Positions 4,995 to 63,016 are shown, counted from the first letter of the stretch. The stretch: 64,000 nt of DNA from an uncultured virus (IMG/VR IMGVR_UViG_3300038314_001498) (IMGVR_UViG_3300038314_001498); one strand, 5' to 3'. Notes: generated from the letters alone by a model not told the origin. Made by a program: numbers and translations.

Positions 4995-5362
4995 AGCCTA
5001 TCCTGCTTTAAATGATCCAAAACCTCACTAAGTAAGTCTTTTATATCTTTTAGAGTTTGAGGCACGTCGTTATACGTTGGTCCTTTTGTATTAAGGAAAT
5101 TCGCTTGGCCTACCGAAGTACCTCGGTCTAAAATAATAGGCTCTTGTCCTCTGGTTAAATACAAAAAGTTAAGCTGAGGGTAAACATCTACAGCCTTATT
5201 TGCCATTTCAGTACTAATACCATTCACACCATTTAATACGTGATAGATAGTTGCGCTGCTCTTATATTCAAGTTTCCGAGCAAACTTATTAGCACTAACA
5301 TCTAGTGCTTCAAGTACGTTTGCTAGAATTACATCGTCTGTTAGTTTGTTTTCTGTTCCCAT
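4991..5362 (-). CDS. HTH transcriptional regulator (repressor-like)
   Basis: SANKFARKLEY..ATIYHVLNG...LNFLYLTRG, a flavobacterial CI-like N-domain. Confidence 0.75.
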   Translation of the reverse strand: MGTENKLTDDVILANVLEALDVSANKFARKLEYKSSATIYHVLNGVNGISTEMANKAVDVYPQLNFLYLTRGQEPIILDRGTSVGQANFLNTKGPTYNDVPQTLKDIKDLLSEVLDHLKQDRL

Positions 5363-5373
5363 GGTTAATTTAG

Positions 5374-5577
5374 TTAGTTTTTATCTAATATTTTTAGTTG
5401 TTCTTCAGTTAAAGAAGAACCATATTTTTTTAATATCTCATCTTTGGTTAAATATTCTTCTGTTTTTAGATTCATTAAAAAATCTGTTACCGCGAAAGAA
5501 GTATTAAAACTAACTTCGCCTTTGTCACAAATATCACTATGAACTTGCTTTAATAATTTGATTGCTGTATTTTCCAT
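5374..5577 (-). CDS. hypothetical protein
   Basis: ORF directly downstream of the integrase. Confidence 0.5.
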   Translation of the reverse strand: MENTAIKLLKQVHSDICDKGEVSFNTSFAVTDFLMNLKTEEYLTKDEILKKYGSSLTEEQLKILDKN

Positions 5578-5579
5578 AA

Positions 5580-6851
5580 CTAACTATAAATTTTATCCCA
5601 ATACTGTTTTAATTCTACGGCATGCTGCCTGTTACTCTTCTTAATGTAATGAAGCATCATGTCCTCTTTGGTCCAACCGCAAACACCCATTATAACGCTG
5701 TTAGGTATTTTACCGTAGTGCATCGTTGCAAAACTTCTACGTCCTATATGGCTTGTTATAAGCTTCCATTTTGGGTACATTCCTATAACCTTGCGTTTTT
5801 TATCCTTGTCATAGATACCACCTTTCATAAGCTCATTAAACTTCAATTCCTTGCAAATATCCTTAATGTACTTGTTAAACTTCTGGTCGCTTATCTTCTC
5901 TGGTAGTTTACCCTTGCGATTTATCAATATACGCTTTACATGAGGATGCACAGGTATAACAACTTTCGTTTTGGTCTTCTGTGTAGTCACTTCTATAAAA
6001 TCATCTATAAAGTTACTAATATCCAACTGACCTAAAAAATCCGAAACCCTTAATCCAGTCCAACATGCAATAATAAGATTATCCCTTACGTTTTCCAACG
6101 TTTTGTTACCTTTTAGATCCGCATTAAAAATCTTCTCAAGCTCTTCCTCGTTAAAATAAGGCTCTTTTAATGGTTCTGCTTTAGGTACATATACTTTCTG
6201 TTTAAAAGCATTGTTAACACTCATGTTAAGCTCTTCTGCCCTAAATAAAAAGAACTTAAAACGGCTTATGTGTCTTTGTATGGTTTTACTAGCATAACTC
6301 TGCTCTGCTAAGTGTTTTACAAATTCAGTGATATGTCGAGCTGTAACATCCTTTATACGTAGCTTATTTCTACCCTCAAAGTCCTCAACCATACCAATAA
6401 ACGATAAGTATTTACCTTGTTCACGCTCATTCATGTAGCTACTAGCATTAACTAAATAATCTGGTGACTTCTCTTTTATCCACCACCGAGCAAAATCGGT
6501 ATAGTAAATCTTATGTTTAGGAATCTTACCTTTTTTCTCTTGCTTTGGTCGGCTAAAAAAGTTGTTACACGTATTAGATAACCAGGTAACATCTATAATT
6601 TCACCAGCCATAAAAGCTTTGTTAAATTCGTCTGGTATATGCAGTTTAAGATGCGCTAAATTTCTGTTAATCTCATCTCTATTGCGTACTTCAATAACAT
6701 TTCTAATCTTCTGGTTTTTGGCATCCCAAAACTTCGGATCAATACAAATAGGCAAAACGGTAGTAATATTGTAAGCTCTACCGTTAGAGAATCTAACATA
6801 CAAGTTAGCTGCATTGCTTTTGGATCTTAATAAGTAGTTTATTGTCGCCAT
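5580..6851 (-). CDS. int: phage tyrosine integrase (arm-binding, SAM-like and catalytic domains)
   Basis: TGLRVSD, KTK, SHIGRRSFAT, GW...HY catalytic residues; 423 aa Bacteroidota-type integrase next to attP. Confidence 0.95.
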   Translation of the reverse strand: MATINYLLRSKSNAANLYVRFSNGRAYNITTVLPICIDPKFWDAKNQKIRNVIEVRNRDEINRNLAHLKLHIPDEFNKAFMAGEIIDVTWLSNTCNNFFSRPKQEKKGKIPKHKIYYTDFARWWIKEKSPDYLVNASSYMNEREQGKYLSFIGMVEDFEGRNKLRIKDVTARHITEFVKHLAEQSYASKTIQRHISRFKFFLFRAEELNMSVNNAFKQKVYVPKAEPLKEPYFNEEELEKIFNADLKGNKTLENVRDNLIIACWTGLRVSDFLGQLDISNFIDDFIEVTTQKTKTKVVIPVHPHVKRILINRKGKLPEKISDQKFNKYIKDICKELKFNELMKGGIYDKDKKRKVIGMYPKWKLITSHIGRRSFATMHYGKIPNSVIMGVCGWTKEDMMLHYIKKSNRQHAVELKQYWDKIYS

Positions 6852-6967
6852 TTTTAAATTTTAATTAATACAGTTTTTTAGATGCAATTTTGTATAAACT
6901 CATGTCTTATGTATTGATTTTACTGGTATTATTGATATATAATAGTTGTATGCAATTTGTTTTTATG

Positions 6968-7111
6968 TCATTGCTTTAACCATTCTTTTGGTATTCTCAA
7001 ACAACTTTTACACATAGGTTTACTTCCGCAAGTAACACAAACAAACTGTTCACTTCGCTTACTTTTGTCTTTAAAATACATTGGTCTGTATCCATTAGGT
7101 TTATTTACCAT
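6968..7111 (-). CDS. 47 aa Cys-rich peptide (CxxC...CxxC) in the orphan cassette
   Basis: MVNKPNGYRP...CVTCGSKPMCKSCL, translated by eye. Confidence 0.45.
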   Translation of the reverse strand: MVNKPNGYRPMYFKDKSKRSEQFVCVTCGSKPMCKSCLRIPKEWLKQ

Positions 7112-7167
7112 AATTCAAAATTTATTTATTATTAATCGCTTCGTCATACAACAATGTATAACAAAAA

Positions 7168-7392
7168 TTAAAGTTTGTTTAATTCTTTATTTACGTCTTG
7201 GTAGTAATTAAATAATTCCAAACTTTTGTTGCTGTTTAATTGTATTAGTTCAACTTGTAGTATTTCTACACAAAGCAGAGCAGAAGTTAATGCTATTCTT
7301 TTTTTACCATATCCTTCAACTCTTGAAATCATAGTTTTACCATAAAAATCTCGGTACAACTGCTCTGCTTTTTCTTTCGGTTTTAATTCCAT
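7168..7392 (-). CDS. hypothetical phage protein inside an attC-like loop
   Basis: PKEKAEQLY...ALLCVE...YYQDVNKELNKL pattern; lies between the stem arms. Confidence 0.7.
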   Translation of the reverse strand: MELKPKEKAEQLYRDFYGKTMISRVEGYGKKRIALTSALLCVEILQVELIQLNSNKSLELFNYYQDVNKELNKL

Positions 7393-7485
7393 AATTATTG
7401 CTTATTTATCTTTAACTTTTGTTATACAAATCCGTTGTGAGTCATTGCACAAGTGACGTAAATCAGCCTTTTAAAATTTAGATGT

Positions 7486-7712
7486 TTTGTCAAACATTTG
7501 TCAAACATATATTATAGCAATATAAGTTTATTTCACTTCAAATATAGATAATTTACATCAAAAACAAACACTTAATTATATTTTTAACATAAATAGTCTT
7601 ATTTAAGATATAAAATTGAATCCTGTCGCGATCACTTTTTAAATCCGTAACACATATAAAACCAAAGTGTTACGGATTTTTTATTAGGTTTTTGTCAAAC
7701 ATTTGTCAAACA
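7486..7712 (+). other. attP: tRNA 3'-end core GAATCCTGTCGCGATCAC (7618-7635) flanked by TTTGTCAAACA x2 arm sites (7486-7507, 7691-7712)
   Basis: T-arm/acceptor-stem fragment, downstream hairpin 7641-7679, direct-repeat pairs on both sides, next to the integrase. Confidence 0.8.
7641..7682 (+). terminator. terminator-like hairpin after the tRNA fragment
   Basis: AAATCCGTAACAC...GTGTTACGGATTT followed by a T run. Confidence 0.65.
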
Positions 7713-7822
7713 TTAACAAGGGTTATTTAATCCTAAAAATGAAACATTTAGACATAAATAGCAATATTTAGTGTTAAAAAGTTTTTATATTTAAAAAAAA
7801 TATAACTACTTTGCCTTCCCCT

Positions 7823-8053
7823 TTAATTAATAGCCAATTTTATTATTTCAGCGTGAGTTGGAAAATATTTTGCAAGATCAATGTGTGGATATTCCTTTAA
7901 TAAACACAAAATAAAATCCTGCGAAATTTTGGCATCAGTTTTTAAGCCTTGCCATTTAGTAAATGTGTTTTTATTGTAGCCAGTAACTCTTACTAATTCC
8001 TTTGCGGTAAGTTTATTGTCTTTTAAAAATCTGTTAAAGCTAAATTCTTTCAT
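7823..8053 (-). CDS. small HTH regulator
   Basis: LTAKELVRVTGYNKNTFTKW is HTH-like. Confidence 0.6.
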   Translation of the reverse strand: MKEFSFNRFLKDNKLTAKELVRVTGYNKNTFTKWQGLKTDAKISQDFILCLLKEYPHIDLAKYFPTHAEIIKLAIN

Positions 8054-8075
8054 GCATCAAATTTAAAATAAAAAT

Positions 8076-8090
8076 TCCTATTAATTAGGA
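8076..8090. promoter_or_regulatory. palindromic operator TCCTAnTnAnTAGGA
   Basis: Also at 9511-9525; both copies are just upstream of HTH genes. Confidence 0.6.
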
Positions 8091-8211
8091 TTATAATTAA
8101 AAAATTTTATAAGTTTGTAAAGAAACAATCAGTTAACAACTATCAGACTATTAATATTATAGTAATCTATTAATCGTTAAATTTGTGTTATAACCTTAAA
8201 ACTTTAACACA

Positions 8212-8397
8212 ATGAAAAAGTTAATTTTACTATTTGCCATGTTAGGCTTAATTGTTAGTTGTGAGCCAGACAATTTAAACGAAAACTATGAAACAGCGAC
8301 AGATTTTATCGAACCAGAAGAAGAGTGCCCAGAGTGGGACCGATGCAACTGCAACGGACAAGTCGATTCAGAAGAATCACCAAACCCATGCGGTTAG
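8212..8397 (+). CDS. small acidic lipoprotein/secreted peptide
   Basis: MKKLILLFAMLGLIVSC lipobox with an acidic, Cys-rich mature part. Confidence 0.7.
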   Translation: MKKLILLFAMLGLIVSCEPDNLNENYETATDFIEPEEECPEWDRCNCNGQVDSEESPNPCG

Positions 8398-8956
8398 TAT
8401 CTATCTTGTAATACTATGCATAATTGCTTTTACAAGCCCTTTTTTGCATGTAGTATTAGATGTTAAAGGAATGGAAGGCTATCTTGGCTACAAGTATATG
8501 TCTTCCTTTCTTTTTGCTGCAGGAAACAGATTAAGCCTTATTTGTATAGGTATGTTATTCCTGTTTGCTTCTCAACAAGTTTTTAACGAATACCAAGCCA
8601 CTGTAAGATTTATAGCTTACAGCACATTATTTGTAGGCGCTTTTTTTGGTATTCAGATCCTTATACCAAAAGAAACTTTAGTAGAATGGTCTGGACAAAA
8701 GGACCTTCCAAAGCAGTTCTATTATGTAGGCATGATAATTGGAGGTATATTATCTGTTATTATATTAAAGTATTTTCAGTTTGCACTTCTACTAAGCGAA
8801 AAGAAATTACGTAAAATTATATACCTTTTAATGGATTCGTTGTATAACGGCCTTGAAGAAAAAAAACTTATCAACCCTTGGAAAGAAAAAGAATTTAAAA
8901 AACACCGTATTCATATTACGGACAAAATTGTAGAGTATGAGCAAGGAAAATTATAA
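8288..8956 (+). CDS. multi-pass membrane protein (true start may be downstream)
   Basis: About four hydrophobic helices. Confidence 0.7.
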   Translation: MKQRQILSNQKKSAQSGTDATATDKSIQKNHQTHAVSIYLVILCIIAFTSPFLHVVLDVKGMEGYLGYKYMSSFLFAAGNRLSLICIGMLFLFASQQVFNEYQATVRFIAYSTLFVGAFFGIQILIPKETLVEWSGQKDLPKQFYYVGMIIGGILSVIILKYFQFALLLSEKKLRKIIYLLMDSLYNGLEEKKLINPWKEKEFKKHRIHITDKIVEYEQGKL

Positions 8957-9131
8957 CGAAAAAGTAAAACGTTCTAGGCTCATCCCTAACAAATACAAAA
9001 AGAAATACAGTGACGATTACGAAGCGCTTAAAGAAGAATTAGAAGAATCTAAAACAGAACTAAATAACTGTATCACGAGATTATCTAAAAAACAAATACG
9101 AAAAATTAAAGCTTTTCTTTTAATAGCTTAA
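8937..9131 (+). CDS. hypothetical coiled-coil protein
   Basis: Overlaps the end of the membrane protein gene. Confidence 0.5.
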   Translation: MSKENYNEKVKRSRLIPNKYKKKYSDDYEALKEELEESKTELNNCITRLSKKQIRKIKAFLLIA

Positions 9132-9495
9132 GTGCAGCTACATTTACCATCTTATCAAACCAAAGGCCATAACTCTCATCCATTTCTAAAAGAGCGTTAT
9201 GGTTTTTATTTAGCACTACACCCAACTTACCTTCTTTAGCAAGATCCATTATACTACCATAACTTACATTAGGCTCGTTTACAATAGACGTATTACCCAT
9301 TAACCAATCATAAGTATAGTTTGGAAAGGCCTCATTAAGCTTTTTTGCCTGGCTAGGTTTTAAAGAAGTCTTATCACCATTTTTTATAGCGTAGTAAACC
9401 TTACTGGAAAAACCAGACTTATCATAGAATTCAGATAAGGACAAACCCTCATCAAAAATTATACGCTCTATACGTTTAAATAAATCCATATACAA
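9106..9495 (-). CDS. CI-like HTH repressor
   Basis: HTH N-domain ending YTYDWLMG plus VNEPNVSY linker; divergent from the lytic early operon. Confidence 0.7.
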   Translation of the reverse strand: MYMDLFKRIERIIFDEGLSLSEFYDKSGFSSKVYYAIKNGDKTSLKPSQAKKLNEAFPNYTYDWLMGNTSIVNEPNVSYGSIMDLAKEGKLGVVLNKNHNALLEMDESYGLWFDKMVNVAALKLLKEKL

Positions 9496-9510
9496 ACCTA
9501 CGTAATAAAA

Positions 9511-32221: not shown

Positions 32222-32365
32222 AATTATTACATTTAGTATTAAAAATATAGACTAAAAATAGAATTTATCTATCGTTTTTACAAATCTAATAAATAAAAAG
32301 TATTAATTAATTATACTTATACTATTAATTATTAATATTTTAGATGTAAATAAATAAGATTAACC

Positions 32366-32599
32366 ATGGGAATGACACAAATACGTATCTCAAAAGATAA
32401 GATTAAGTCCACCAATGCTTTTAGCAATCTTAGTCCTATACAGAAACAATTAACTGTTAAGCGTAATAACGTGCTACAAATAGAAAACGCTATTAATGTT
32501 ATAAGTAATAGAGGTTATGTGTATTGGCATAAGAACAGTAATTACTCTTATCATAACATTAGAATTATAGATGAGATTATTGATAATGATTTGCATTGA
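32366..32599 (+). CDS. hypothetical protein at the distal end of the array
   Basis: ORF track. Confidence 0.5.
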   Translation: MGMTQIRISKDKIKSTNAFSNLSPIQKQLTVKRNNVLQIENAINVISNRGYVYWHKNSNYSYHNIRIIDEIIDNDLH

Positions 32600-32631
32600 T
32601 TTCTGGATGCGTCCGCAGGCGATTAGCCTAC

Positions 32632-32821
32632 AACGTATTTGGCTATGATTAGTAGCGTGAAATAGTAAATAACCTTAATAAATAAACGATGAAAAAAACA
32701 GACGAATATTACCAAGCATTAGAAGTTTGTAATAATGCTAAAGATTACCATAATATGGATGTAATGGTTGCAAGAACCTACGTAAGAGCGTATGATGAAG
32801 CTATTAATTATAGCCATTGTT
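32632..32821 (+). repeat. attC-like site 1
   Basis: GGCTATGATTAGTAGC / GCTATTAATTATAGCC arms. Confidence 0.85.
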
Positions 32822-32997
32822 GTAAAAGCGATAGCGAGCAGTTGGTTTGCGATGTAGATTATCTAAACAACTTTACTAAAGACACAAAATACTTATGTAA
32901 GCCTGACGGTAATAAACACTTTGAAGTAGAAGATGACTTTGGGTGTTTGTATAAAGTACATAGGAAATGTTTTAAAAAAAACAGAGTAGCAAACTAA
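32689..32997 (+). CDS. fusion-type ORF crossing the GTT at 32819
   Basis: Junction peptide EAINYSHCCKS. Confidence 0.65.
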   Translation: MKKTDEYYQALEVCNNAKDYHNMDVMVARTYVRAYDEAINYSHCCKSDSEQLVCDVDYLNNFTKDTKYLCKPDGNKHFEVEDDFGCLYKVHRKCFKKNRVAN

Positions 32998-33005
32998 TTG
33001 TTTAC

Positions 33006-33062
33006 AACGTACTTGTATAACTTATCGTTGTGAGGTACGAGCAATGGAAGTTATACGGTGTT
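33006..33062 (+). repeat. attC-like site 2 (57 bp, canonical size)
   Basis: GTATAACTT / AAGTTATAC arms. Confidence 0.85.
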
Positions 33063-33134
33063 ATTTGGCGAGGTACGAGCGAACTGTTTAACCCTTAAAA
33101 AAGGCGTGGCTTTTCAAAAGCCAAATTATAGATT

Positions 33135-33713
33135 ATGAGTGAAAAAAAATATAAAATTATTTACGCAGATCCAGCTTGGTCTTATAGAGATGGTTCTTTA
33201 AGTCGTGGTGGTGCAAAAAGGCATTATGATACAATGACCGATGAAGAAATTAAACAGTTACCTATAAATGATATAGCAGACGATGACAGTATTTTATTTA
33301 TGTGGGCAACATTTCCTAAAATACAAGAAGGATTAGATGTTATAAAATCTTGGGGATTTGAGTATAAAACAATAGGATTTGTATGGATTAAAACCAATAA
33401 GCGATTTAATAAAAATCAAACATCATTTATGCCTTTAGAAAGTCTTGATGTTTTTTGGGGAATGGGAAGATGGACAAGAAGTAATACAGAAATATGTTTA
33501 ATAGGCGTAAAAGGTAAACCTTTAAGAGAAAATGCAGATGTGCATAGTGTTGTAGTTTCTGAAATACAAAAGCATAGCAAAAAGCCAGACGAAATAAGAG
33601 ATATGATAGTTAGATTATGTGGCGATTTACCAAGAGTTGAACTATTTGCAAGAAATGAAACTAAAGGTTGGGATGTTTGGGGAAATGAGGTTGAAACAAG
33701 TATAGCAATATAG
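33135..33713 (+). CDS. MT-A70 family adenine methyltransferase (cassette)
   Basis: IIYADPAW, LFMWAT, WGFEYKT, HSKKPD, VELFAR. Confidence 0.9.
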   Translation: MSEKKYKIIYADPAWSYRDGSLSRGGAKRHYDTMTDEEIKQLPINDIADDDSILFMWATFPKIQEGLDVIKSWGFEYKTIGFVWIKTNKRFNKNQTSFMPLESLDVFWGMGRWTRSNTEICLIGVKGKPLRENADVHSVVVSEIQKHSKKPDEIRDMIVRLCGDLPRVELFARNETKGWDVWGNEVETSIAI

Positions 33714-33866
33714 CCTAAATATGCATTATACATTTGTGTATGGTGCGTTTTTATGGCACGTATGAGTGGTCGCCAATTTTTTAATAATTATTGCAACGGC
33801 TTGTGTATGGTTTGAAAGCCAACGCACAAACTCTGATTAAATGAACTAATATTAACTTGGCTTTTT

Positions 33867-34350
33867 AACGTTGAGCGTATGAAACGTAGCGTTTAGAAAA
33901 ACAGAAACTTTGAATAAAATACAGAATTAATAATAAAATTTTAGCGATGGAAATTACGGAAATTAAAAACATTGTAAATAGTGACTTACCAGACCAATAT
34001 AAAGAAAGGGCTTTATTAAAGGTGTTGGCAAAAGATGATGATATTATACCAAATATGTTAGAAATCTTAAAAATTGAACGAGAGACGAAAAAAGACTTAC
34101 TAACTGATATTAATCTTGAATTATCAAGAGCGCATTTATACATTGAAAGAGCAGACGTTAAAAAAGATGACAAGCAATTTAGCAAATCTTTTGTGTTGGA
34201 TGAAATAGCCTCTTTCTATGTTAAATACAAAGGAAGAATAAGCCATTGTTTTAATAGATTTAACTGAGCGGAAAGGCAATTTTATTATGAGCAAATACAC
34301 ACTTACTAACGTTTTAAGCACTTACATAGCTATGTTTTATACGCATTGTT
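33867..34350 (+). repeat. attC-like site 3 (whole gene in loop)
   Basis: GCGTATGAAACGTAGC / GCTATGTTTTATACGC arms. Confidence 0.85.
33947..34267 (+). CDS. hypothetical protein in attC-like loop
   Basis: 106 aa ORF between the arms. Confidence 0.65.
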   Translation: MEITEIKNIVNSDLPDQYKERALLKVLAKDDDIIPNMLEILKIERETKKDLLTDINLELSRAHLYIERADVKKDDKQFSKSFVLDEIASFYVKYKGRISHCFNRFN

Positions 34351-34404
34351 ATGTACTGGCGCAACTAACCGTTTTGAGTGCGTACAGATATTGCGCTTGT
34401 ACAT

Positions 34405-34521
34405 AACGTTAAACGTGTATGGCAAGTTGCCTTCACGGAATTTAATAAATACTTAAACAACTTTAGAATTATGAATACAAATAACAAAAAAACAGAAAAG
34501 CAATTTGCTATACACGGTGTT
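34405..34521 (+). repeat. attC-like site 4
   Basis: CGTGTATGGCAAGTTGC / GCAATTTGCTATACACG arms. Confidence 0.85.
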
Positions 34522-34707
34522 ATAAGCCGTTTATCTATGCAAGAAGTATTGAATTATGAAATACACTCACATTGGTTAGCGAGTTGGATTGGATTTGAAT
34601 GGGGGCAAGATTTAATGGGTAAATACTTCGCTTGGAAAGTAAGAAGAAAATACAATAGATATTTAGTTTCATTGGAAGAACGTAAGCGTGTTTTAAATGG
34701 CTTATAA
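34471..34707 (+). CDS. fusion-type ORF crossing the GTT at 34519
   Basis: ATG in the loop; junction KQFAIHGVISR; stop inside TAAC. Confidence 0.65.
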   Translation: MNTNNKKTEKQFAIHGVISRLSMQEVLNYEIHSHWLASWIGFEWGQDLMGKYFAWKVRRKYNRYLVSLEERKRVLNGL

Positions 34708-34906
34708 CGTACTAGCATAAAATTTGAAACGGAAAAATGAAACAATACATATTAAAATACACTATAAAACTTTGGTATAGAATGACCTTTGAAAATAACA
34801 AATACGCTAAACAACTATTTGAATTAATTGAAGGATTCTATGAAGTTACAGAAAACTATATTTCTTTAATAATACACAAAAGTAGTTTTTGATTTTATGC
34901 ATTGTT
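34706..34906 (+). repeat. attC-like site 5
   Basis: GCATAAAAT / ATTTTATGC arms. Confidence 0.8.
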
Positions 34907-34964
34907 ATGTTTTAGTTGCGCTCTAAAGCGTAACACTTGCGTACTAATTGGCGCAATTAAACAT

Positions 34965-35252
34965 AACGGTCTGCGTGTATGGGATGTGATTTGCAAATAA
35001 TAAAATAACATTGAATTAATAACTAAAAAAGAGAGCGATATGGAATTTGAACTACAATATGAATTACAAGAATTTAGAGAAATACAAGACCAATATTTTG
35101 ACGAAGATGGCAAGTGCTACAACCGACATATTTTAAGCACCGACATTGCGGAAAAAATGCTGAACTTAATTAACAATCTTAGCGAACGTGTAAATGAACT
35201 CGAACCTGTGATTAAGCAACAAATTAAAAAATCATTGCCTATACACGATGTT
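34965..35252 (+). repeat. attC-like site 6
   Basis: CGTGTATGGGATGTGATTT / AAATCATTGCCTATACACG arms. Confidence 0.8.
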
Positions 35253-35420
35253 ACCCAATGTTTGCCCTAAGATAGCAGAGAGTTTAAAGAATGGCAAAGA
35301 AATATGGGAATTACTAGACAAGAAAATACCAACATTTATAACTGGAACGAATTTAAGTATGAACGAGCTTTTTTCCTAGAAAAATTTATGGAAGATAGAA
35401 ATAGGGCAAATTTTGGGTAA
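35040..35420 (+). pseudogene. fusion-type ORF with an in-frame TAA at 35268-35270
   Basis: The frame stays open for 49 more codons to the TAA in GGGTAAC. Confidence 0.55.
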
Positions 35421-35702
35421 CGAAAAGTTTATGAATAGTGCGTGAAATAATAACTAAAATTAGTAAAAATGGAAAATAAGAAATGGTGGATTAAATTTAA
35501 AAATAGTAAATGGCGATTAATTGCTTTATGTGTAGGCTCTTTAGTAGTTGGAACACAAATGTTTTTAATACCAAAAACGGTAAGTGAAATTGTAATAAGA
35601 GGCATTGGTGTTCTATGGATATTAGAAGGCATTTCTTATTCTTTTGACTTATGGATTAGACACTTAAATAAGCGAAAAGAAGCATTATTTATAAACGGTG
35701 TT
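35419..35702 (+). repeat. attC-like site 7
   Basis: GTTTATGAATAGTGC / GCATTATTTATAAAC arms. Confidence 0.85.
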
Positions 35703-35852
35703 GTAGGTAGTTATAAAAGTAAACCTTATGCCGACTTATGTAAGTTAAGAAAAGAAAAGATTGAGGATTTGAAACGACTTGAAAAAGTAATGAAAGACAT
35801 TTGTGCAGACGTTGGCAAATATACCGACACTGGTGGTAATTACAAACCCTAA
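35469..35852 (+). CDS. fusion-type ORF: two-TM N-module plus coiled C-module
   Basis: Junction EALFINGVVGSY at GTT 35700. Confidence 0.65.
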   Translation: MENKKWWIKFKNSKWRLIALCVGSLVVGTQMFLIPKTVSEIVIRGIGVLWILEGISYSFDLWIRHLNKRKEALFINGVVGSYKSKPYADLCKLRKEKIEDLKRLEKVMKDICADVGKYTDTGGNYKP

Positions 35853-35860
35853 TTACCTAC

Positions 35861-35983
35861 AACGCAGTTGTGTATGGTATGTTGTGTATAAACAGACATA
35901 AATTATCGAATTAAAAACTAAATAAATTAATAATAACAAGCCTTTGAAATAGCAGTAATTAGCAATAGACTATACACGTTGTT
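35861..35983 (+). repeat. attC-like site 8
   Basis: GTGTATGGTATGTTG / CAATAGACTATACAC arms. Confidence 0.8.
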
Positions 35984-36021
35984 AACTACTGTGCGACATT
36001 GGAAAAACAAAAACTTAATAA

Positions 36022-36441
36022 ATGAAAAACTTACTTTGGTTAGACGACATTAGAAACCCTTTTTTAAATGAAGAAGGAAAAGTACCAACAGATAAAAATG
36101 GTGAATACTATAATATAAACTGGGTTTTAAATTACGATCAGTTTGTAAAATGGATAGAACTTTTCGGATTGCCTGATGCAATTTCTTTTGACCACGATTT
36201 AGCCGATGAACATTATACACCTGAATATTTTTGGGATAACTATGAAGAAAGTAAAAAGTTTCAAGAATGGCGTGGGCAAAATTACCAAGAGAAAACAGGT
36301 ATGGATTGTGCTAAATGGTTAGTAGATTATTGTATGGGTAACGAAAAGAAATTGCCTGAAATATTCGTACACTCTGCAAACCCAGTTGGTGCTGATAATA
36401 TAAAAGGGTTGTTAGATAACTTCATTAAGCATTGTAGTTAA
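36022..36441 (+). CDS. cyclic-phosphate-processing receiver-like domain protein (cassette)
   Basis: LLWLDDIR, ISFDHDL, TGMDCAKWL, VHSANPVG. Confidence 0.8.
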   Translation: MKNLLWLDDIRNPFLNEEGKVPTDKNGEYYNINWVLNYDQFVKWIELFGLPDAISFDHDLADEHYTPEYFWDNYEESKKFQEWRGQNYQEKTGMDCAKWLVDYCMGNEKKLPEIFVHSANPVGADNIKGLLDNFIKHCS

Positions 36442-36655
36442 CGGAATTGTATAAGATTAGTTACGTGAAATAAGCACAAACCAAAATAAATAAACGATGA
36501 AAAAGCCAAAAAATTTAACATTAAAAAACTATTGGGAAGCAAACAGTTCTTGGGAAAGACAAGAGATTGTAGAAAATACCTTTAAATATTTAAATTTTTT
36601 AGAACAAAAACTTAATAAATTAACCAACACTAAGTAATTAATTTTATACGGTGTT
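36440..36655 (+). repeat. attC-like site 9 (46 aa ORF 36497-36637 in loop)
   Basis: GTATAAGATTAGTTAC / GTAATTAATTTTATAC arms. Confidence 0.85.
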
Positions 36656-36722
36656 GGTTGGCGAAGCGGACTGTAATTATTAAAAAATTGGCGTTGCTGA
36701 GGCACGAAGCAAAATTAAGAGT

Positions 36723-37544
36723 ATGAGTAAGAAAAAAATAATAGGTTGGGTAAGTTGCGGAATTACAAGCGCAGTAGCTTGTAAACAAGCAATTATGAAA
36801 TACGGTAAAGACAAAATTGAACTTTACTATATGAAGATTGACAGCGCACACCCAGACAATGACAGGTTTTTAAAAGACCTTGAAAAATGGTATGATTTAC
36901 CAATAACCACAATTAGAAGCGATAAATACAAAGACCAATTTGAAGTTATAGAACATACTGGTTATGTAAATGGTGCTGAAGGTGCAAGATGTACTTTAGA
37001 GTTAAAGAAGAAAGTACGTTGGGGAATTGAAGAAAATATTGATTTCTCTGCTCAAATATTTGGATTTGAATTTGTACCAAAAGAAGTGAATAGAGCATTA
37101 CGATTTAATGAACAATACCCAAAAGCAAAAGCAATATTTCCATTAATTGAAACTTATCTAACAAAGGAAAATTGCGCTGAAATATTACGATTTGCAAACA
37201 TAGAATTACCAACGATGTACAAACTTGGTTATCCAAATAATAATTGTATTGGATGCGTAAAAGGTGGAATGGGTTATTGGAATAAAATACGTGTTGATTT
37301 CCCAGAACACTTTGATAAAATGGCAAAAGCTGAACGAGTTGCAGGATTTAGTTGTTTGAAAACCGAAAAAGAGGGAAGAATATTTTTAGATGAATTAAAC
37401 CCAAAAAGAGGAAGAAAGATGAAAGTTGTAATGCCAGACTGTGGAACTTATTGCGAGGTTGAATTTGAAGGAATAGAACACCCTATGTTAAAGAAAATAT
37501 TAGATAAGGAAGTAAATATTGAGCAATTAAGATTGGTTATCTAA
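36723..37544 (+). CDS. PAPS-reductase-like (PP-loop) phage protein (cassette)
   Basis: SCGITSA, ARCTLELKK, NNNCIGCVKGG motifs. Confidence 0.75.
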   Translation: MSKKKIIGWVSCGITSAVACKQAIMKYGKDKIELYYMKIDSAHPDNDRFLKDLEKWYDLPITTIRSDKYKDQFEVIEHTGYVNGAEGARCTLELKKKVRWGIEENIDFSAQIFGFEFVPKEVNRALRFNEQYPKAKAIFPLIETYLTKENCAEILRFANIELPTMYKLGYPNNNCIGCVKGGMGYWNKIRVDFPEHFDKMAKAERVAGFSCLKTEKEGRIFLDELNPKRGRKMKVVMPDCGTYCEVEFEGIEHPMLKKILDKEVNIEQLRLVI

Positions 37545-37820
37545 AGCCTAAATATGCAATATATACAGCCGTATATGGTGCGTTTTTATGGCGCGTATGA
37601 GTGGTCGCCAATTTTTTAATAATTATTGCAACCAACGTTTGCGTACATGAATAGTAGCCCTTAAAAAGACTGAACTTTGGTTAAGCATTTATAAGCAACT
37701 ATTTATTTTTTGAGGGTTGGCAAATGGCGATAGCCAAATATTTATAATATTATTAAATAAAACTTGTATATATCATATATATAATGTATATTTGAATATT
37801 ATTAAATAAAACTTAAAATT

Positions 37821-38042
37821 ATGACTACTCAAATTAAAGAAAGAATCAATCTTATTAACGAACAAATAATTGAATTAGGACAAGCTAAAGTTGCTTCTGA
37901 TAGAGGTATATCTCAAGTTAAAAAAGAGCAATTAGTTAAGGATATTGAAATGTTACACAACCTTAAACAAACTTTAGTTAAACTTTCTAAAAAGATGGTG
38001 TTATCTACAAGTGAATTAGAATTTGTAAAAGAGATATTATAA
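37821..38042 (+). CDS. hypothetical protein in attC-like loop
   Basis: Preceded by a TTG...TATATTTG Bacteroidota promoter (37764-37794). Confidence 0.65.
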   Translation: MTTQIKERINLINEQIIELGQAKVASDRGISQVKKEQLVKDIEMLHNLKQTLVKLSKKMVLSTSELEFVKEIL

Positions 38043-38182
38043 TGAGAAAGCTTATAGACATACCAGAAGAAGATAATACTCTTGAAAATTTACAGATACT
38101 AGCTATTAAAGCAAAAAAGGATTTGAAAAATTATATCCAAGATGTTTTAATTGAACACGCTAAAAAGGGTGGGGAAAAATAA
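38042..38182 (+). CDS. 46 aa RHH-like DNA-binding protein
   Basis: MRKLIDIPEE...LQILAIKAKKDLKNYIQDVL, translated by eye; coupled to the previous stop. Confidence 0.55.
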   Translation: MRKLIDIPEEDNTLENLQILAIKAKKDLKNYIQDVLIEHAKKGGEK

Positions 38183-38309
38183 GTAGTTGCGTTGCTGATA
38201 AGACCGAACCATTGATAAAGCACTTACTTAGGCTATTATTTATGTACGGTGTTAGTAACTGGCGGTTTAATACCCGCCAGAGTGAGTTACCGTAAAACCG
38301 CTTGTTACT

Positions 38310-38503
38310 AACGTTAACGTGTAACAGTAGTAGTGTGAAATAATAACTTAAATTAACAAAAATGAAAAAACCAAAAATTACAGATTTTATTAAAGAAACA
38401 ATTGCCAACCCAAGTATTGAGTTGATGTACTTAAAAGACTATGTAAAAGAATTAGAAGCTTATGTAGATAAACAAGAAGAAGCTATTACTGTTACACATT
38501 GTT
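38310..38503 (+). repeat. attC-like site 11
   Basis: GTGTAACAGTAGTAG / CTATTACTGTTACAC arms. Confidence 0.85.
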
Positions 38504-38658
38504 GTGCACAGTTGCCGACTTTTGATGAAAGTAATTTAAATAAAAACGAATACGCTGATGATGTGCAAAAAACAATACACAATAACCTTTGTAAACCATC
38601 TTATAAGATTGGGTGGCAAAACTGCTATGCTTGGCTAAAACAAGAACTAAAGAAGTAA
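38362..38658 (+). CDS. fusion-type ORF crossing the GTT at 38501
   Basis: Junction EAITVTHCCAQL. Confidence 0.65.
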   Translation: MKKPKITDFIKETIANPSIELMYLKDYVKELEAYVDKQEEAITVTHCCAQLPTFDESNLNKNEYADDVQKTIHNNLCKPSYKIGWQNCYAWLKQELKK

Positions 38659-38671
38659 GGCAATTGTTTAC

Positions 38672-38876
38672 AACGGTATGCAGATATGAATAGATTTTTT
38701 AACGATTAAACACAAAACAAATGAACGAATTAGAACAGATTTTTACAGAAATGCTAAACCATATAGACGACCATAAGGAATCATACGATAAGTCACAATG
38801 GACAAATGAAGCTATTGTTAAGACTTGGATAAAGACTAACGAAAGTAAGTTGAAAAATTTATTTATATCTGGTGTT
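38672..38876 (+). repeat. attC-like site 12
   Basis: CAGATATGAATAGATTTTT / AAAAATTTATTTATATCTG arms. Confidence 0.85.
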
Positions 38877-39041
38877 ACAAACTGTGCGATTCTTGAAACT
38901 ATGCATCAGCAAGTATTCACAGAATTTCACAACCTTAGAAAGCAAAAAGGAAACGCAAGGTATATACAAATAGATGGCAAAGAAGCAAATGAGATTATTA
39001 GACTTGGTAAGTTAGCGACTAAAAAAGAGCATTGTTTGTAA
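38721..39041 (+). CDS. fusion-type ORF crossing the GTT at 38874
   Basis: Junction NLFISGVTNCA; stop inside TAAC. Confidence 0.65.
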   Translation: MNELEQIFTEMLNHIDDHKESYDKSQWTNEAIVKTWIKTNESKLKNLFISGVTNCAILETMHQQVFTEFHNLRKQKGNARYIQIDGKEANEIIRLGKLATKKEHCL

Positions 39042-39162
39042 CGGCTATTGTATGAGTAGTAGCCGATTAGAATCACAGAAGTATCGAATTAGAAATTAAC
39101 TTAATAAATAGTAATAGTTTTAAAACCAAGCACTGCAACGGCTATTACTTATACAAATTGTT
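39040..39162 (+). repeat. attC-like site 13
   Basis: TTGTATGAGTAGTAGCCG / CGGCTATTACTTATACAA arms. Confidence 0.85.
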
Positions 39163-39180
39163 GTAGTGCGTTATTTAGCG

Positions 39181-39555
39181 ATGGAAACAGCAGAAATTAA
39201 AAAAACCGTATTAGAAATAAGAAAAAAAGCAATTAATGTTGCTTGTGCTTTAAAAGGATTTAAAGAAGAAGATTGTTATGAAACGGTTTTTGAAGAAGAT
39301 GAGATTGAGGTAGTTTTTTCTTGGAATAGTGGGTGTAGTTGTTGTTCTGATGAGGAACAAAGAGTTTACGTGAAATACGAAGAATTAACGCAAGACATTG
39401 AGGCTCTTAAAAAAGAAAAAGAACAACAACGTATAGAAGAAAAAAGAAAGAAGGATGAGGCAGAAAAGTTAAGAAAGCAAAAAGAAGCTGATGCCAAGAA
39501 AAAACGGGAAGAAGCAGAATATTTAAGATTAAAGAAGAAGTTTGAAAGTGCGTAG
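39181..39555 (+). CDS. hypothetical coiled-coil protein (cassette)
   Basis: ATG at 39181, in frame with the GTT at 39160; ends EYLRLKKKFE. Confidence 0.65.
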   Translation: METAEIKKTVLEIRKKAINVACALKGFKEEDCYETVFEEDEIEVVFSWNSGCSCCSDEEQRVYVKYEELTQDIEALKKEKEQQRIEEKRKKDEAEKLRKQKEADAKKKREEAEYLRLKKKFESA

Positions 39556-39568
39556 GCTAATGCACTAC

Positions 39569-40050
39569 AACGGACAAGCATAAGAGCAGTGCGTGATTAA
39601 GCACAGAACTAAATTAATATTAACAAGCCTTTCCGCTTCTTTTTCTTTTGAGCGTGGGCAAAAAACCAAAATTATGGACTTAAAAATTAGAGAAGATGCC
39701 TACAAAATGGCAATTGAAAAATGGGGTGCAAAAGCACAATTGGAAATGGCACAAGAAGAAGCTACTGAACTTGCACTTGCCGTTAGAAAACACATTCGTA
39801 AAAATGATGAAACCAGCTTTAGCAACTTGGTTGAAGAAATTGCAGACGTTGAAATTATGATTGAGCAAATTGTAATGATGCATAATGATTTTGGTTTTAG
39901 GCAAATGGTAGATGCACAAAAAGCATTTAAGATTAGTAGACTACTTAAACGGATGAACGAGAACTCTTTTGAAGCGTTGGAAAAAGAAAAAGAAGCTACC
40001 GAGTAGTTTGCAAATAGACACGACACTAAGCATTGCTTTTATGCAGTGTT
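39569..40050 (+). repeat. attC-like site 14 (MazG-like gene in loop)
   Basis: GCATAAGAGCAGTGC / GCATTGCTTTTATGC arms. Confidence 0.85.
39674..40006 (+). CDS. MazG-like NTP pyrophosphohydrolase
   Basis: AQEEATELALA...LVEEIADVEIMIEQ. Confidence 0.8.
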   Translation: MDLKIREDAYKMAIEKWGAKAQLEMAQEEATELALAVRKHIRKNDETSFSNLVEEIADVEIMIEQIVMMHNDFGFRQMVDAQKAFKISRLLKRMNENSFEALEKEKEATE

Positions 40051-40073
40051 GTAGTGTCGTTTTAATGCACTAC

Positions 40074-40144
40074 AACGTAAAAGCATATGGTTTCGGTTGC
40101 CTTAACCGTACTAATGCTTCGGCAACTGAACTATATGCGGTGTT
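40074..40144 (+). repeat. attC-like site 15 (71 bp)
   Basis: GCATATGGTTTCGGTTGCC / GGCAACTGAACTATATGC arms. Confidence 0.85.
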
Positions 40145-40223
40145 GGTTGGCGCAGCGGACTGTAATTATTAAAAAATTGGCGTGCCTGACGTTAGGAAGG
40201 CAAATTACGTAATACTTTTAAAA

Positions 40224-40472
40224 ATGAAATCACTATTTAAAGAAATACAAGAAGAACATTTACCATCTGGTATTAAAGAAATGATGGCTTATGCACTTTA
40301 CGAAAACAAAAACAAACTTCAAGCTGTTTTAAATTATCTAAAAAAGGAAAATGCTAAAAATAAAAGTTCAAATATCAAAAACTCAATAGACCACTTAAAT
40401 TACATACTAAAAGAATATTATCACGATACAAAATCATTTAAAGATGGACAAAAAGAACATTTATCTAACTGA
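40224..40472 (+). CDS. hypothetical protein (cassette)
   Basis: ATG at 40224. Confidence 0.55.
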   Translation: MKSLFKEIQEEHLPSGIKEMMAYALYENKNKLQAVLNYLKKENAKNKSSNIKNSIDHLNYILKEYYHDTKSFKDGQKEHLSN

Positions 40473-40704
40473 AAGTTTAAGCGGATTAATGGCGGGTGAA
40501 AGGATTAAAGCTAATAGTTTTAAAGAAGCTGAAAATAAATGCCCTGATGGGTATAGAGTTATTGGTAAGTTTATATGTGAAATAAACGCTCCTGAATTTG
40601 ACAATATAAACTTGAATTAGCAAATATGATTTATATGCAGCCGTATATGAAGCGTTTTTGCTTGCGTTTGAGTGGTCGCCAATTTTTTAATAATTATTGC
40701 AACC

Positions 40705-40957
40705 AACGTATTTGTATAACCGTTGTTACGTGAATTAAAAACTTAAAATTATAAAAATGAACGAAAGACAAAACAAAATAGCAAAAAGAGCAGATAAACT
40801 GCAAGAAGATTTACAAAGTATAATTAATGTAGGGAAAAAAGTAAAAGGTAGTGAAGCTCATTACATTGATTTTGTAACTGCCTTTTTTATACACAGAATA
40901 GCTGCACTAGAAATTGAATTAGAAAACCTAAAAAAGTAATAACGGTTATACATTGTT
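40705..40957 (+). repeat. attC-like site 16
   Basis: GTATAACCGTTGTTAC / GTAATAACGGTTATAC arms. Confidence 0.85.
40757..40939 (+). CDS. hypothetical protein in attC-like loop
   Basis: Stop codon lies in the right arm. Confidence 0.6.
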   Translation: MNERQNKIAKRADKLQEDLQSIINVGKKVKGSEAHYIDFVTAFFIHRIAALEIELENLKK

Positions 40958-40983
40958 GTATGACGAAGTGAACAGTAAAAATT

Positions 40984-41163
40984 ATGGAATTAGAAACAAT
41001 AATAACAAAAGATAAAGAGCAATTTTTACAAAAAGAAAAACCTTGGTTTCATTGGCGAAGTTTTAAAGCATTTAGAAAATTTATGGAAGAAGATGCTGTT
41101 GAGTGTAAAAATTGTGGGACTTGGTATTGGGAAGGATGTAATAAGAGATGTGATTGCAAATAA
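40984..41163 (+). CDS. 59 aa Cys-rich protein (cassette)
   Basis: ...VECKNCGTWYWEGCNKRCDCK, translated by eye. Confidence 0.55.
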   Translation: MELETIITKDKEQFLQKEKPWFHWRSFKAFRKFMEEDAVECKNCGTWYWEGCNKRCDCK

Positions 41164-41177
41164 TTTTTATTGCATAC

Positions 41178-41305
41178 AACGTTTAGTATAAGAATAGTAG
41201 CCGAGCAAACAGGTAAAAAAATTGAGTTAAACAAATAATTAATAAGTAAGTAAGTAATAGCCTCTAAAAAGACCTATAACAAGGCTATTATTTTTATACA
41301 TTGTT
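41178..41305 (+). repeat. attC-like site 17
   Basis: GTATAAGAATAGTAGCC / GGCTATTATTTTTATAC arms. Confidence 0.85.
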
Positions 41306-41321
41306 ATAGGGCGTTTTTATT

Positions 41322-41537
41322 ATGAAGTACATAAATGTAAACAAAATAATTGCTGCCGATATTTTAGAACCTTATGAAAATAGCGGTGAAAGTTGGGATA
41401 TTGGAAGTACAAGAGGATGGCAAGTTTCATTTTTATTAGGATATAGAGAAGGCTATCCAGAATGGATTTTAGTAGATAAAGAAACTAAAGAAGATTGTAT
41501 AAAACTTATTGAATCGTTTGGGTTAAATGCCCTATAA
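41322..41537 (+). CDS. hypothetical protein (cassette)
   Basis: Fills GTTATAGGGCGTTT...AAATGCCCTATAAC; stop inside TAAC. Confidence 0.65.
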   Translation: MKYINVNKIIAADILEPYENSGESWDIGSTRGWQVSFLLGYREGYPEWILVDKETKEDCIKLIESFGLNAL

Positions 41538-41658
41538 CGGTTTTGTATAAGCGCAGTAGCGGATTTTATGCAACTGCTATTCGGTTAAAATGAAACTTAA
41601 ATATAAACAAAAACGGTTCAAGTTTGCACCTGAACCGCTATTGCGTTTATACCATGTT
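41536..41658 (+). repeat. attC-like site 18
   Basis: GTATAAGCGCAGTAGCGG / CCGCTATTGCGTTTATAC arms. Confidence 0.85.
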
Positions 41659-41866
41659 ATGCCATGTCATCTCTCTTCCATATTTTTTTAATTAATGGTT
41701 TCATAATATGAACATTTAAAATATAAGTTATGGGTGTACATATTACAATACCGATTAAATACCATATCAGATTATTTGCGGTACAACCGTGAATGATAAA
41801 TGTAAATAATAGAATAACACAAGTTTGGAAGAAGGCATTTTTCAGTTCTAACCACCTAATTCGCAT
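41657..41866 (-). CDS. small two-TM protein (possible immunity protein)
   Basis: Overlaps the end of the Gly-zipper gene; stop inside minus-strand TAAC. Confidence 0.55.
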   Translation of the reverse strand: MRIRWLELKNAFFQTCVILLFTFIIHGCTANNLIWYLIGIVICTPITYILNVHIMKPLIKKIWKRDDMA

Positions 41867-42618: not shown

Positions 42619-42879
42619 TTTAAATAAGATTTATGTCGCTTTATCCTAACTTTTAAGCGACTATTTTAATTATGTTTCTTAACTCACTTCGCAGTGCAAT
42701 CAAACTGTTGTTTTGAAGCTCGGCTACTCGATTATTTTAAATGGTTTTTCGCTTTCACATACTCCATTTTGGATTTGGATTGTCAGCCCCATAATAACTT
42801 TGTTTTATTTGTTATCAAAATTAAAAATGACGTTCTAAAAAACTATTTAAAGGTTTGCTAAAATGCTGTTAATGATATG

Positions 42880-42923
42880 GCATAACTAAAGAATAACTAC
42901 ACCAAACAAAAAACTTAATAATA
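42880..42923 (-). other. putative attI-like site
   Basis: The last AAC has no attC stem; minus strand reads GTAGTTATTCTTTA-GTTATGC; lies just upstream of the recombinase. Confidence 0.55.
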
Positions 42924-43724
42924 ATGTGCAATTCAAAAAACATAAGTGTTGTTTTAAAAGAGTTTGAACAATTACTACAGCTAAAATACTCTGGTAGAAC
43001 ACCTGCAAACTATCTTTATCATGTAAAACTATTTTTAAACTATTCTGATAACGTTCCGTTAAGAGTAAATAATGAGGATATACTTAATTACAATATATCA
43101 ATAAGAAATAAAAGCAATAGTTTTAGAAACGTGGCTATAAATGCTATAAAGTCTTATTTTAAGTTGTACCTTAGAAAGCAAGTTAAAGGTTTTAGTTCCA
43201 TTAGACCACCAAAAGAATACAAAAAGCCAAAAGTATATGATTGTTATATTTTAAGTGAAAAGATACAAAATATAGAAAACAAAAAACACAAGGCAATACT
43301 AGCTTTATCTCTTTGCTGTTGGCTCAGAAAATCCGAACTTTTAAATATAAAAATATCGGATATTAATGGTAGCTTAATGACGTTGAAAATAAACCAATCA
43401 AAAGGCTGTAAAGATAGAGTTGTTATTATAAGTGAAAACACAATTAATATTTTAAGAGAATATCATAAAGAATACAAACCAAAAGAATATTTATTTGAAG
43501 GGTTAAATGGTGGTAAATATAGCTCTACGAGTGTAGATAAAATAACTAAGAAGTATCTTTATAAAGACATGAGATTTCATTCATTAAGGGCTTCAGGTGC
43601 TACATTTGCATTAAGTAACGGAACAGATCTAAAAACAGTTTCTAAAATACTAGGTCACAAACACATTCAAACAACGGAATATTACATTCCTATACTTTAT
43701 AAAACTATTAAACAAGCGATATGA
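42924..43724 (+). CDS. compact tyrosine recombinase (integron-integrase/XerD-like)
   Basis: YS.RT..NY N-domain; LRKSE, SKGCKDR, FHSLRAS, LGHK, TTEYY catalytic set; no arm-binding domain. Confidence 0.9.
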   Translation: MCNSKNISVVLKEFEQLLQLKYSGRTPANYLYHVKLFLNYSDNVPLRVNNEDILNYNISIRNKSNSFRNVAINAIKSYFKLYLRKQVKGFSSIRPPKEYKKPKVYDCYILSEKIQNIENKKHKAILALSLCCWLRKSELLNIKISDINGSLMTLKINQSKGCKDRVVIISENTINILREYHKEYKPKEYLFEGLNGGKYSSTSVDKITKKYLYKDMRFHSLRASGATFALSNGTDLKTVSKILGHKHIQTTEYYIPILYKTIKQAI

Positions 43725-52376: not shown

Positions 52377-52526
52377 AATTATTTACATAGATAAAAACTA
52401 TCACTTCAACAAATTTAATAAAAATAATCTATTGTAAATGATATATTTAAAATAAAAAAACCCTACCAATCAAGGAGGGCTTTTCGTTGCATGGGATTGC
52501 AAAACTACTCAAACGAATTTGGAGTA

Positions 52527-62937: not shown

Positions 62938-63016
62938 GTATAGATAAAATTTATTATTAAAACAAATTTAATAAATAAAATCTATAATAAAAGGCAATAC
63001 TTTAATTTTGAATATT

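Follow-up and report, generated by a model that had tools for sequence, protein, structure and literature searches.

A probable relic of a second small-ORF array between attP and the integrase gene of an uncultured virus

How does cassette DNA come to lie beside a phage attachment site, about 25 kb or more from the array whose recombination sites it shares? This question is raised by a 64,000-nt stretch of marine phage DNA from an uncultured virus (IMG/VR IMGVR_UViG_3300038314_001498), referred to here as the window. A first-pass annotation, made from the sequence alone, described an orphan cassette unit on the minus strand from 7436 to 6945, and proposed that cassettes are mobilised from a main array to secondary sites in the phage backbone. 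All the elements that it listed could be confirmed in the sequence at their minus-strand coordinates, and the unit does lie between the phage integrase gene (int423, 423 aa, 5580..6851, minus strand) and attP (core at 7618-7638). Its origin is better explained in another way, for which the organization of the main array and the DNA on either side of the unit are both informative.

The main array and its recombinase

The main array (32258-42923) consists of about 22 small plus-strand ORFs, with 17 left and 12 right four-box junctions, and its cargo includes a methyltransferase-like 192-aa ORF and a 273-aa ORF. In the left junctions, an R'' box with AAC at its end precedes G, a spacer of approximately 5 nt, and a GTATAAG-type L'' box, which often has TAGTAGCGTGAAATAA after it; in the right junctions, a TTATAC-type L' box is separated by 2-3 nt and a T from an R' box that begins with GTT. 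R' pairs with R'' across an ORF or a short hairpin, and L'' pairs with L' across a short loop or an ORF. This four-box AAC/GTT layout is found in the 12 right and 17 left junctions, as well as in the unit near attP. One main-array cassette (40945..41180, plus strand) has the same R' and R'' boxes as the part of the unit that surrounds ORF B (see below), with a 59-aa ORF in its place. The array terminates in TGGCATAAC (42878-42886), and the terminal AAC (42884-42886) is 37 nt upstream of the ATG (42924) of a recombinase gene at the array end.

This gene (42924..43724, plus strand) encodes a 266-aa Xer-like recombinase (PF00589, E=1.2e-23), referred to as int266. Its best NCBIfam match is an archaeal XerA-type model, at 129.5 bits and thus under the cutoff of 220. 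It fails the integron-integrase model TIGR02249 (82.9 bits vs. a cutoff of 265, over profile positions 7-180 of 315), and scores 45.4 bits on NF011946 (cutoff 435). Relatives of int266 are present in Cellulophaga phage Ingeline (67% identity) and Polaribacter phage Freya (45%). As far as the sequence goes, int266 is a candidate enzyme for the sites of both the array and the unit. Folding of five array sites as DNA gave z-scores of -0.24 to -2.87, not convincingly better than shuffles, and six sites folded as single-strand DNA gave no clear signal. Across the window, neither an Rfam match (gathering thresholds) nor a tRNA (ARAGORN) was found, and inverted GTT...AAC pairs of 9-mers with one mismatch (571 in total) were spread over its whole length and were uninformative. 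Loose motif scans with one substitution were too permissive for both right junctions (152 matches vs. 139 expected) and left junctions (72 vs. 50.7 expected), and were superseded by site profiles.

Several other features of the arrays are recorded here as separate observations. The main array contains empty-hairpin R units, e.g., around 34348-34407 and 40048-40076. Its last unit (41656-42886, bounded by GTTATGCCA...TGGCATAAC) contains two minus-strand ORFs, one of 69 aa and one of 256 aa with a signal-peptide or lipoprotein-like start, which are oriented opposite to all other cassettes. A family of 52-nt AT-rich repeats (ATAGATAAAA...ACAAATTTAATAAA), located at 32258-32309, 52387-52438, 56172-56223, and 62940-62991, stands at the starts of gene blocks and may represent phage promoters. 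Among the IMG/VR contigs L003-L006, three with a 57%-identical small recombinase begin 150-170 nt upstream of that gene, and in contigs of the sample that yielded the window, breaks lie at position 12762 and, by estimate, near 37.7 kb; assembly breaks at arrays suggest population heterogeneity.

The extent of a single cassette can be defined from isolates of phage Freya. Three circular records (Freya_1, Freya_2, and Freya_5), with 100, 100, and 99% identity over the flanks compared, are set apart by two insertions, of 842 and 887 nt, immediately before the small integrase gene. Both insertions start with G-spacer-L'' right after an R'' AAC and end in their own R'' AAC before the conserved leader. 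The repeat common to the junctions of the first is 11 nt (TTGTTTACAAC) and that of the second only CAAC, as read from the junction sequences. The insertion site therefore adjoins the recombinase gene in these relatives, an arrangement observed in them and not in the window. In all 10 cultured Freya isolates, the position of the small integrase in the record shifts as the genome rises from 43,978 to 48,920 nt. In the three compared here, whole cassettes make up the differences, which looks like natural cassette capture. The Freya_5 insertion matches window 38032-38160 (76.5% over 132 nt, with a protein match of 80% over 41 aa) and also 37741-37838. The cassette common to window 37741-38182 and Freya_5, a phage of another host genus, comprises a palindromic promoter-like AT-rich stretch, a 73-aa ORF, and a 46-aa ORF (MRKLIDIPEED...). 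Ingeline_1, a Cellulophaga phage, has two integrases, one large and one small, like the window, and a few small ORFs with similar junctions, together with a conserved ACACCCACATAAC-type leader, stand ahead of its small integrase.

The unit between attP and int423

On the minus strand, the unit (7436..6945) reads AAC, G, 5 nt, GTATAACAAAA, a 74-aa ORF, TTTTGTTATAC, ATT, and GTTGTATG...47-aa ORF...CATACAAC. The boundary AAC (7436-7434) is followed by G (7433), the spacer GATTT (7432-7428), and the L'' arm GTATAACAAAA (7427-7417). The 74-aa ORF (ORF A, 7168..7392) lies within the L''-L' loop, which is closed by the L' arm TTTTGTTATAC (7166-7156) and followed by the spacer ATT (7155-7153). Next come the R' box GTTGTATGACGAAG (7139..7152), a 47-aa ORF with a CxxC...CxxC motif that was absent from the first-pass annotation (ORF B, 6968..7111), and the R'' box ATTGCATACAAC (6945..6956), with which the cassette and, in the reading preferred below, a relic array terminate. 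According to the definition from Freya, in which a cassette extends from the G after one AAC to the AAC of its own R'', G 7433 through AAC 6945 make up precisely one whole cassette, organized as G-spacer-L''...L'-spacer-R'...R'' with one ORF per loop (A in L and B in R).

The L' arm and R' box form a 24-nt junction that had been noted as identical to 40945-40968, and the identity is exact: the junction has two copies in the window, at 7139-7162 (minus strand) and 40945-40968 (plus strand), with a chance expectation of 0 in 100 dinucleotide-preserving shuffles. The 12 nt of the terminal R'' are likewise identical to main-array positions 41169-41180, and likeness to the main array ends at the AAC. 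An inverted repeat of 19 nt with 95% complementarity surrounds ORF A (7155-7173 and 7410-7428), and one of 11 nt with 91% surrounds ORF B (6942-6952 and 7145-7155); the latter taken alone is background, since the same 681 AT-rich bases contain 20 inverted pairs of at least 8 nt. Site profiles derived solely from main-array junctions (12 right and 17 left) were run on the window and 12 loci. All matches with E<0.1 in the window fell inside 32.6-41.7 kb on the plus strand, except for the two sites of the unit (7164-7139 and 7445-7415, minus strand, E=0.034 each), and the next-best match outside the array (47192) had E=0.57. As the only out-of-array matches at this threshold, the two sites assign the unit to the site family of the main array. 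Both the profiles and the 24-nt junction thus confirm that the unit, although outside the main array, consists of genuine array-type cassette DNA.

Pieces of the unit also occur in other contexts, in short assembled contigs of at least 80% likeness from other metagenomes (X12, X15, X16, and X19), in which the content between segments is open at four joints; for X12 and X15, only the covered parts of 5000-9500 are informative. In X12, the cassette start (7436-7413) is joined to 7170-7044 without ORF A, and other DNA lies past 7436; the loop at the 7413/7170 joint may hold something else between the joined segments. X15 contains 7139-7168 exactly but with different flanks, in an 841-nt contig with a depth of 717, and also contains ORF A (7144-7414) with zero differences. 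Between the window and X12, X15, and X19, the same sites border different ORFs. Together with X16, these contigs show the sites to be modular and 7436 and 6945 to be genuine boundaries, so the limits drawn by the first-pass annotation at AAC 7436 and AAC 6945 are retained as true cassette boundaries. An exact scan of viral contigs for a 20-nt junction returned only contigs of the window's own phage.

ORF A belongs to a PHROG of unknown function (PHROG 21441, E=2e-8) and has seven metagenomic homologs, with Atlas neighbors that are all viral hypothetical proteins; a 46%-identical relative is cassette cargo in viral contig L079. ORF A is therefore a widespread small phage protein, with no match among cultured phages by tblastn. 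Site-profile matches (E<1) were absent from 27 of the 28 viral loci with ORF A relatives, indicating that the family is not confined to arrays of this site type. ORF B had no match in Pfam or PHROGs, and no homology to the main-array 59-aa ORF with identical R boxes (E=10). Pfam, PHROGs, and Atlas assigned no function to either ORF. Neither has a copy in the main array, where the sole match is a 40-nt site region. The alignment of the ORF A family is mosaic, with only the C-terminal half in common for P0003 and only the N-terminal half for P0004 and P0005, which suggests recombination inside the gene.

Flanks of the unit and the slot in which it lies

Upstream of the unit on the minus strand, 7437..7483 is the 3' tail of a truncated cassette without ORF and R' site. 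Within this tail, 41 nt (window 7440-7480) match Tenacibaculum phage JQ at 95% identity; in JQ, they come just after the stop of a 43-aa ORF in a cassette of that phage's own array. The truncated cassette has an R'' box (AATGACTCACAAC, 7434..7446, minus strand) that ends in the boundary AAC, fits the left-junction table, and, in 12 of 13 positions, is complementary to R' of the JQ cassette. As this flank is a JQ-type cassette tail lacking ORF and R', what precedes the unit is a truncated cassette and not phage backbone.

Downstream, the terminal AAC (6947-6945) is followed on the minus strand by a 41-nt array-end leader in an attI-like position (6904..6944), which extends from the AAC to a small-integrase start codon, and by a small tyrosine-recombinase stub (6865..6903) whose translation gives 12 codons (MSLYKIASKKLY) plus a stop, the latter 13 nt before the int423 ATG. 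The homology that supports leader and stub is short: in a search of 401 Flavobacteriaceae genomes, window 6957-6851 matched contig C2 of genome G188 at 83% over 108 nt (E=1.5e-24). There, the terminal R'' of an array, with which 6945-6956 aligns, ends in AAC and is followed by the matching leader and then by ATG AGT TTA TAC AAA ATT, the start of a 204-aa ORF with 41% identity to int266 (E=3e-39). The small recombinase of G188 (L111, 773-1554, minus strand) is split into this 204-aa ORF and a 49-aa ORF with the catalytic end, by either a frameshift or an assembly error.

In X16 and X19, 6886-6947 is found in other contexts, with different DNA past the GTT of 6945-6947. The recombinase frame continues in the 30 letters of X16 before 6886 (TERKLYHLKY, as translated here). 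These contigs show 6886-6947 in what appears to be its normal setting, an array end facing its recombinase gene, and as that gene goes on in them their leaders are probably ordinary array ends. The leader belongs to another small-integrase lineage than that of the main array (MSLYKI... vs. MCNSKNIS... for int266, 41% identity), and 6944-6904 agrees with the leader of the main array in its first two bases and differs from there on. A scan of viral contigs with a 22-nt leader piece found one contig of the window's phage and a 25-nt match in a large unrelated ORF (L077), which was taken as chance.

It had been noted that the terminal AAC has no stem and lies upstream of an integrase gene, as at 42884. 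Both observations stand: no stem follows the AAC, with 6880-6960 folding no better than shuffles (z=0.14), and the AAC is 93 nt upstream of the int423 ATG (6851), compared with 37 nt for int266. The likeness to 42884 reflects that each is the end of an array next to a small-integrase gene, which at the unit has been lost.

The attP site itself consists of a core resembling a tRNA 3' end (7618..7638) with arm-type direct repeats on both sides, i.e., ATGTTTGACAA units on the P side (7675..7713) and repeats of the same families (D5/D8) on the P' side (7481..7508), all on the minus strand; int423 presumably binds these repeats. The core was placed from a Winogradskyella MAG (G003), in which window 7700-7618 is found on contig C125 (96%) and 7638-7484 on contig C52 (88%), so that the 21 nt of 7618-7638 are present at both prophage ends. 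As a separate observation, direct repeats of the TTTGTCAAAC type flank the core at 7481-7516 and 7675-7721 and occur once more at 1709-1744; they are probably arm-type integrase sites, and their GTTT...AAAC ends loosely resemble empty R units.

The prophage in this MAG (L040) is integrated beside tRNA-Pro, and its integrase has 95% amino acid identity to int423 over residues 1-202. The conserved DNA on the P' side stops at AAC 7486-7484: in L040, 7638-7484 (88%) and 6853-6244 (91%) are conserved, and 7483-6854 is replaced by 761 nt with one unrelated 257-aa ORF. In a collinear contig of X19, 6782 and 7486 are separated by 770 letters unlike those of the window, and likeness to X16 ends at 6785 and 7486. 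The content of this slot, bounded by the attP arm and int423, therefore varies among otherwise collinear relatives (L040 and X19), and the breakpoints, from 7484/7486 to 6853/6782-6785, make the variable block larger than the unit. A search for close relatives of int423 returned the same phage (L001 and L013) and the one at 95% (L040), the others having at most 49% identity. Among the runs listed, 11 of 23 hold 0.97-1.00 of sampled words of 6400-8000, indicating that the block is invariant among near-identical copies of the phage.

For its proposal of mobilisation to a secondary GTT site, the first-pass annotation had pointed to relatives with an empty site joining about 6945 to 7436, and to whether the breakpoints of relatives lacking the unit are related to GTT/AAC. 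No such empty site was found in the 2 viral, 26 metagenomic, and 28 genomic loci identified with int423, and the three relatives without the unit differ over the larger block. The outcome for the breakpoints is mixed, as 7486-7484 and the X16/X19 breakpoint at 6785-6783 fall on AAC triplets but 6853 in L040 does not. The array-derived DNA on both flanks likewise argues against a cassette that had jumped to a new site.

Origin of the block and comparison with known systems

We consider the 630 nt from 7483 to 6854 (minus strand) to be probably what remains, without an integrase, of a second array's integrase-proximal end. From 5' to 3', the relic would consist of the truncated cassette tail with its R'', the complete cassette (7433-6945), the 41-nt leader, and the 12-codon stub. 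Its source would be an array served by the second small-recombinase lineage, of the kind seen in G188, X16, and X19 and carried by Flavobacteriaceae phages beside a small Xer-like tyrosine recombinase, and it would have come to lie in the slot that separates the attP P' arm from int423, where relatives carry other cargo. Both ends of the relic cut functional units (a cassette and a recombinase gene, respectively), which points to non-site-specific recombination or deletion as the process that placed or trimmed the block, whether by deletion in place or by import of a fragment. Promoters in the block may now drive ORF A, ORF B, and int423. The AAC/GTT breakpoints described above could hint at site-specific events at pseudo-sites, which would speak against the relic. 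No relative with a full second array at the position between attP and int423 was found.

Alternatively, the block may be a live satellite platform, on whose array-end site int266 would act in trans, so that cassettes shuttle between the main array and the prophage edge. Such activity would be consistent with the exact identity of L'-spacer-R' over 24 nt and of R'' over 12 nt to the main array, with the intactness of both ORF A and ORF B, and with the presence of three different sequences past the GTT of the same leader in X16, X19, and the window. However, X16 and X19 have a recombinase frame that reads on, so these are probably ordinary array ends; the leader stems from a different small-integrase lineage and diverges from that of the main array almost at once; and the 11 near-complete runs among the 23 listed give no sign of alternative content. 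We therefore regard a live platform as unlikely.

The origin first proposed, in which a main-array cassette (or pair) left as a circle and was inserted by the array recombinase at a secondary GTT/AAC site in the backbone about 25 kb away, appears quite improbable. It would account for the AAC at both ends of the unit, its full array-type sites, the junction common to unit and main array, the X12 contig with the same cassette start, a different neighbor and a break exactly at 7436, and the AAC at the outer breakpoint of the block (7486-7484). It is at odds with the DNA outside 7436 and 6945, which is cassette tail and leader/stub rather than backbone; with the relatives, which differ from 7484/7486 to 6853/6782 and not from 7436 to 6945; and with ORF A and ORF B, of which the main array has only the 40-nt site region and no copy. 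Finally, that the repeats are not mobile at all, but regulatory hairpins (terminators or processing sites) of small early genes with array likeness from common regulation or gene conversion, is scarcely credible, since whole units are inserted exactly at AAC beside the recombinase in Freya isolates, the same sites border different ORFs in the window, X12, X15, and X19, and the inverted repeats span ORFs rather than lying between them, even though left junctions carry a conserved TAGTAGCGTGAAATAA-like motif leading into each ORF and the cassette leaders are common to several phages, both compatible with expression signals within the sites.

As an integrase-less relic, the block resembles CALINs (clusters of attC sites lacking an integron integrase) in having cassette ORFs bounded by paired inverted-repeat AAC/GTT sites with no working recombinase gene adjacent. 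It retains a left junction (7445-7415), a right junction (7164-7139), a terminal R'' (6956-6945), and a recombinase gene cut to 12 codons, i.e., at least two cassette sites without an intact cognate recombinase beside them, and is CALIN-like by analogy, its sites not being classical attC. Their inner two boxes may be oriented differently from those of the classical attC consensus. Unlike in CALINs, the recombinase of the present system (266 aa, Xer-like) does not reach the cutoff of the integron-integrase model, the crossover is beside AAC on the 5' side of the site in ORF direction, the ORFs point to the recombinase gene, and the L''-L' loop of a site can itself contain an ORF. A total of 17 CALINs have been reported in phages, including one with methyltransferase cassettes in a virulent Polaribacter (Flavobacteriaceae) phage (PMC9892861, 2023), and the main array of the window too has a methyltransferase-like ORF. 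The same report mentions a chromosomal CALIN beside a truncated integron-integrase gene (PMC9892861).

Integrons are similar in that new cassettes are located at the recombinase-proximal end, few bases are common at the junctions, and cassettes are common to unrelated replicons. In a survey of tyrosine recombinases, an IntI-specific insertion is described as essential for integron function (PMC8138268). The present system does not belong to the integrons proper, as the features that define IntI are lacking in int266, and the folding of array sites gave no support for a folded single-strand substrate (z-scores of -0.24 to -2.87). Morons and other cargo between attP and int in temperate phages share with the block a variable slot among collinear relatives, at the prophage edge after integration, but the cargo here is a piece of a recombination platform (sites, leader, and recombinase stub) rather than a plain gene with its own promoter. 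In the PeSL-type mobile regulatory cassettes found in hyperplastic regions of T4-type phages, shuffling proceeds by homologous recombination between repeats and is not known to involve a dedicated recombinase. PeSL cassettes likewise form arrays of small phage ORFs parted by repeated stem-loop and promoter modules that promote shuffling, whereas the arrays described here have a tyrosine recombinase gene at the end and junctions with as little as 4 nt in common.

Our full-text searches of the literature returned no description of such cassette capture, giving only the CALIN report (PMC9892861) in the text that they covered. The Freya/Ingeline paper (PMC8776804) mentions integrases, and the words "cassette," "hypervariable," and "indel" do not appear in its main text as searched.

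The system to which the unit belongs, i.e., small-ORF arrays in Flavobacteriaceae phages that have four-box AAC/GTT sites and end at the gene of a 260-270-aa Xer-like recombinase, is under-described, and the unit provides an independent and internally consistent definition of its cassette. Should the block be a live docking point after all, cassettes could be stored at the prophage edge, expressed along with the integrase gene in lysogeny, and returned to the main array, so that a temperate flavobacterial phage would handle its cassettes at two locations in an integron-like economy driven by a non-IntI recombinase. As a probable relic, the block would mean that pieces of the platform, and not only single cassettes, move between phages into the cargo slot between attP and int, and that two small-recombinase lineages circulate among close relatives. 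Together with the Freya isolates, it offers a testable case for integron-like cassette capture without an integron integrase.
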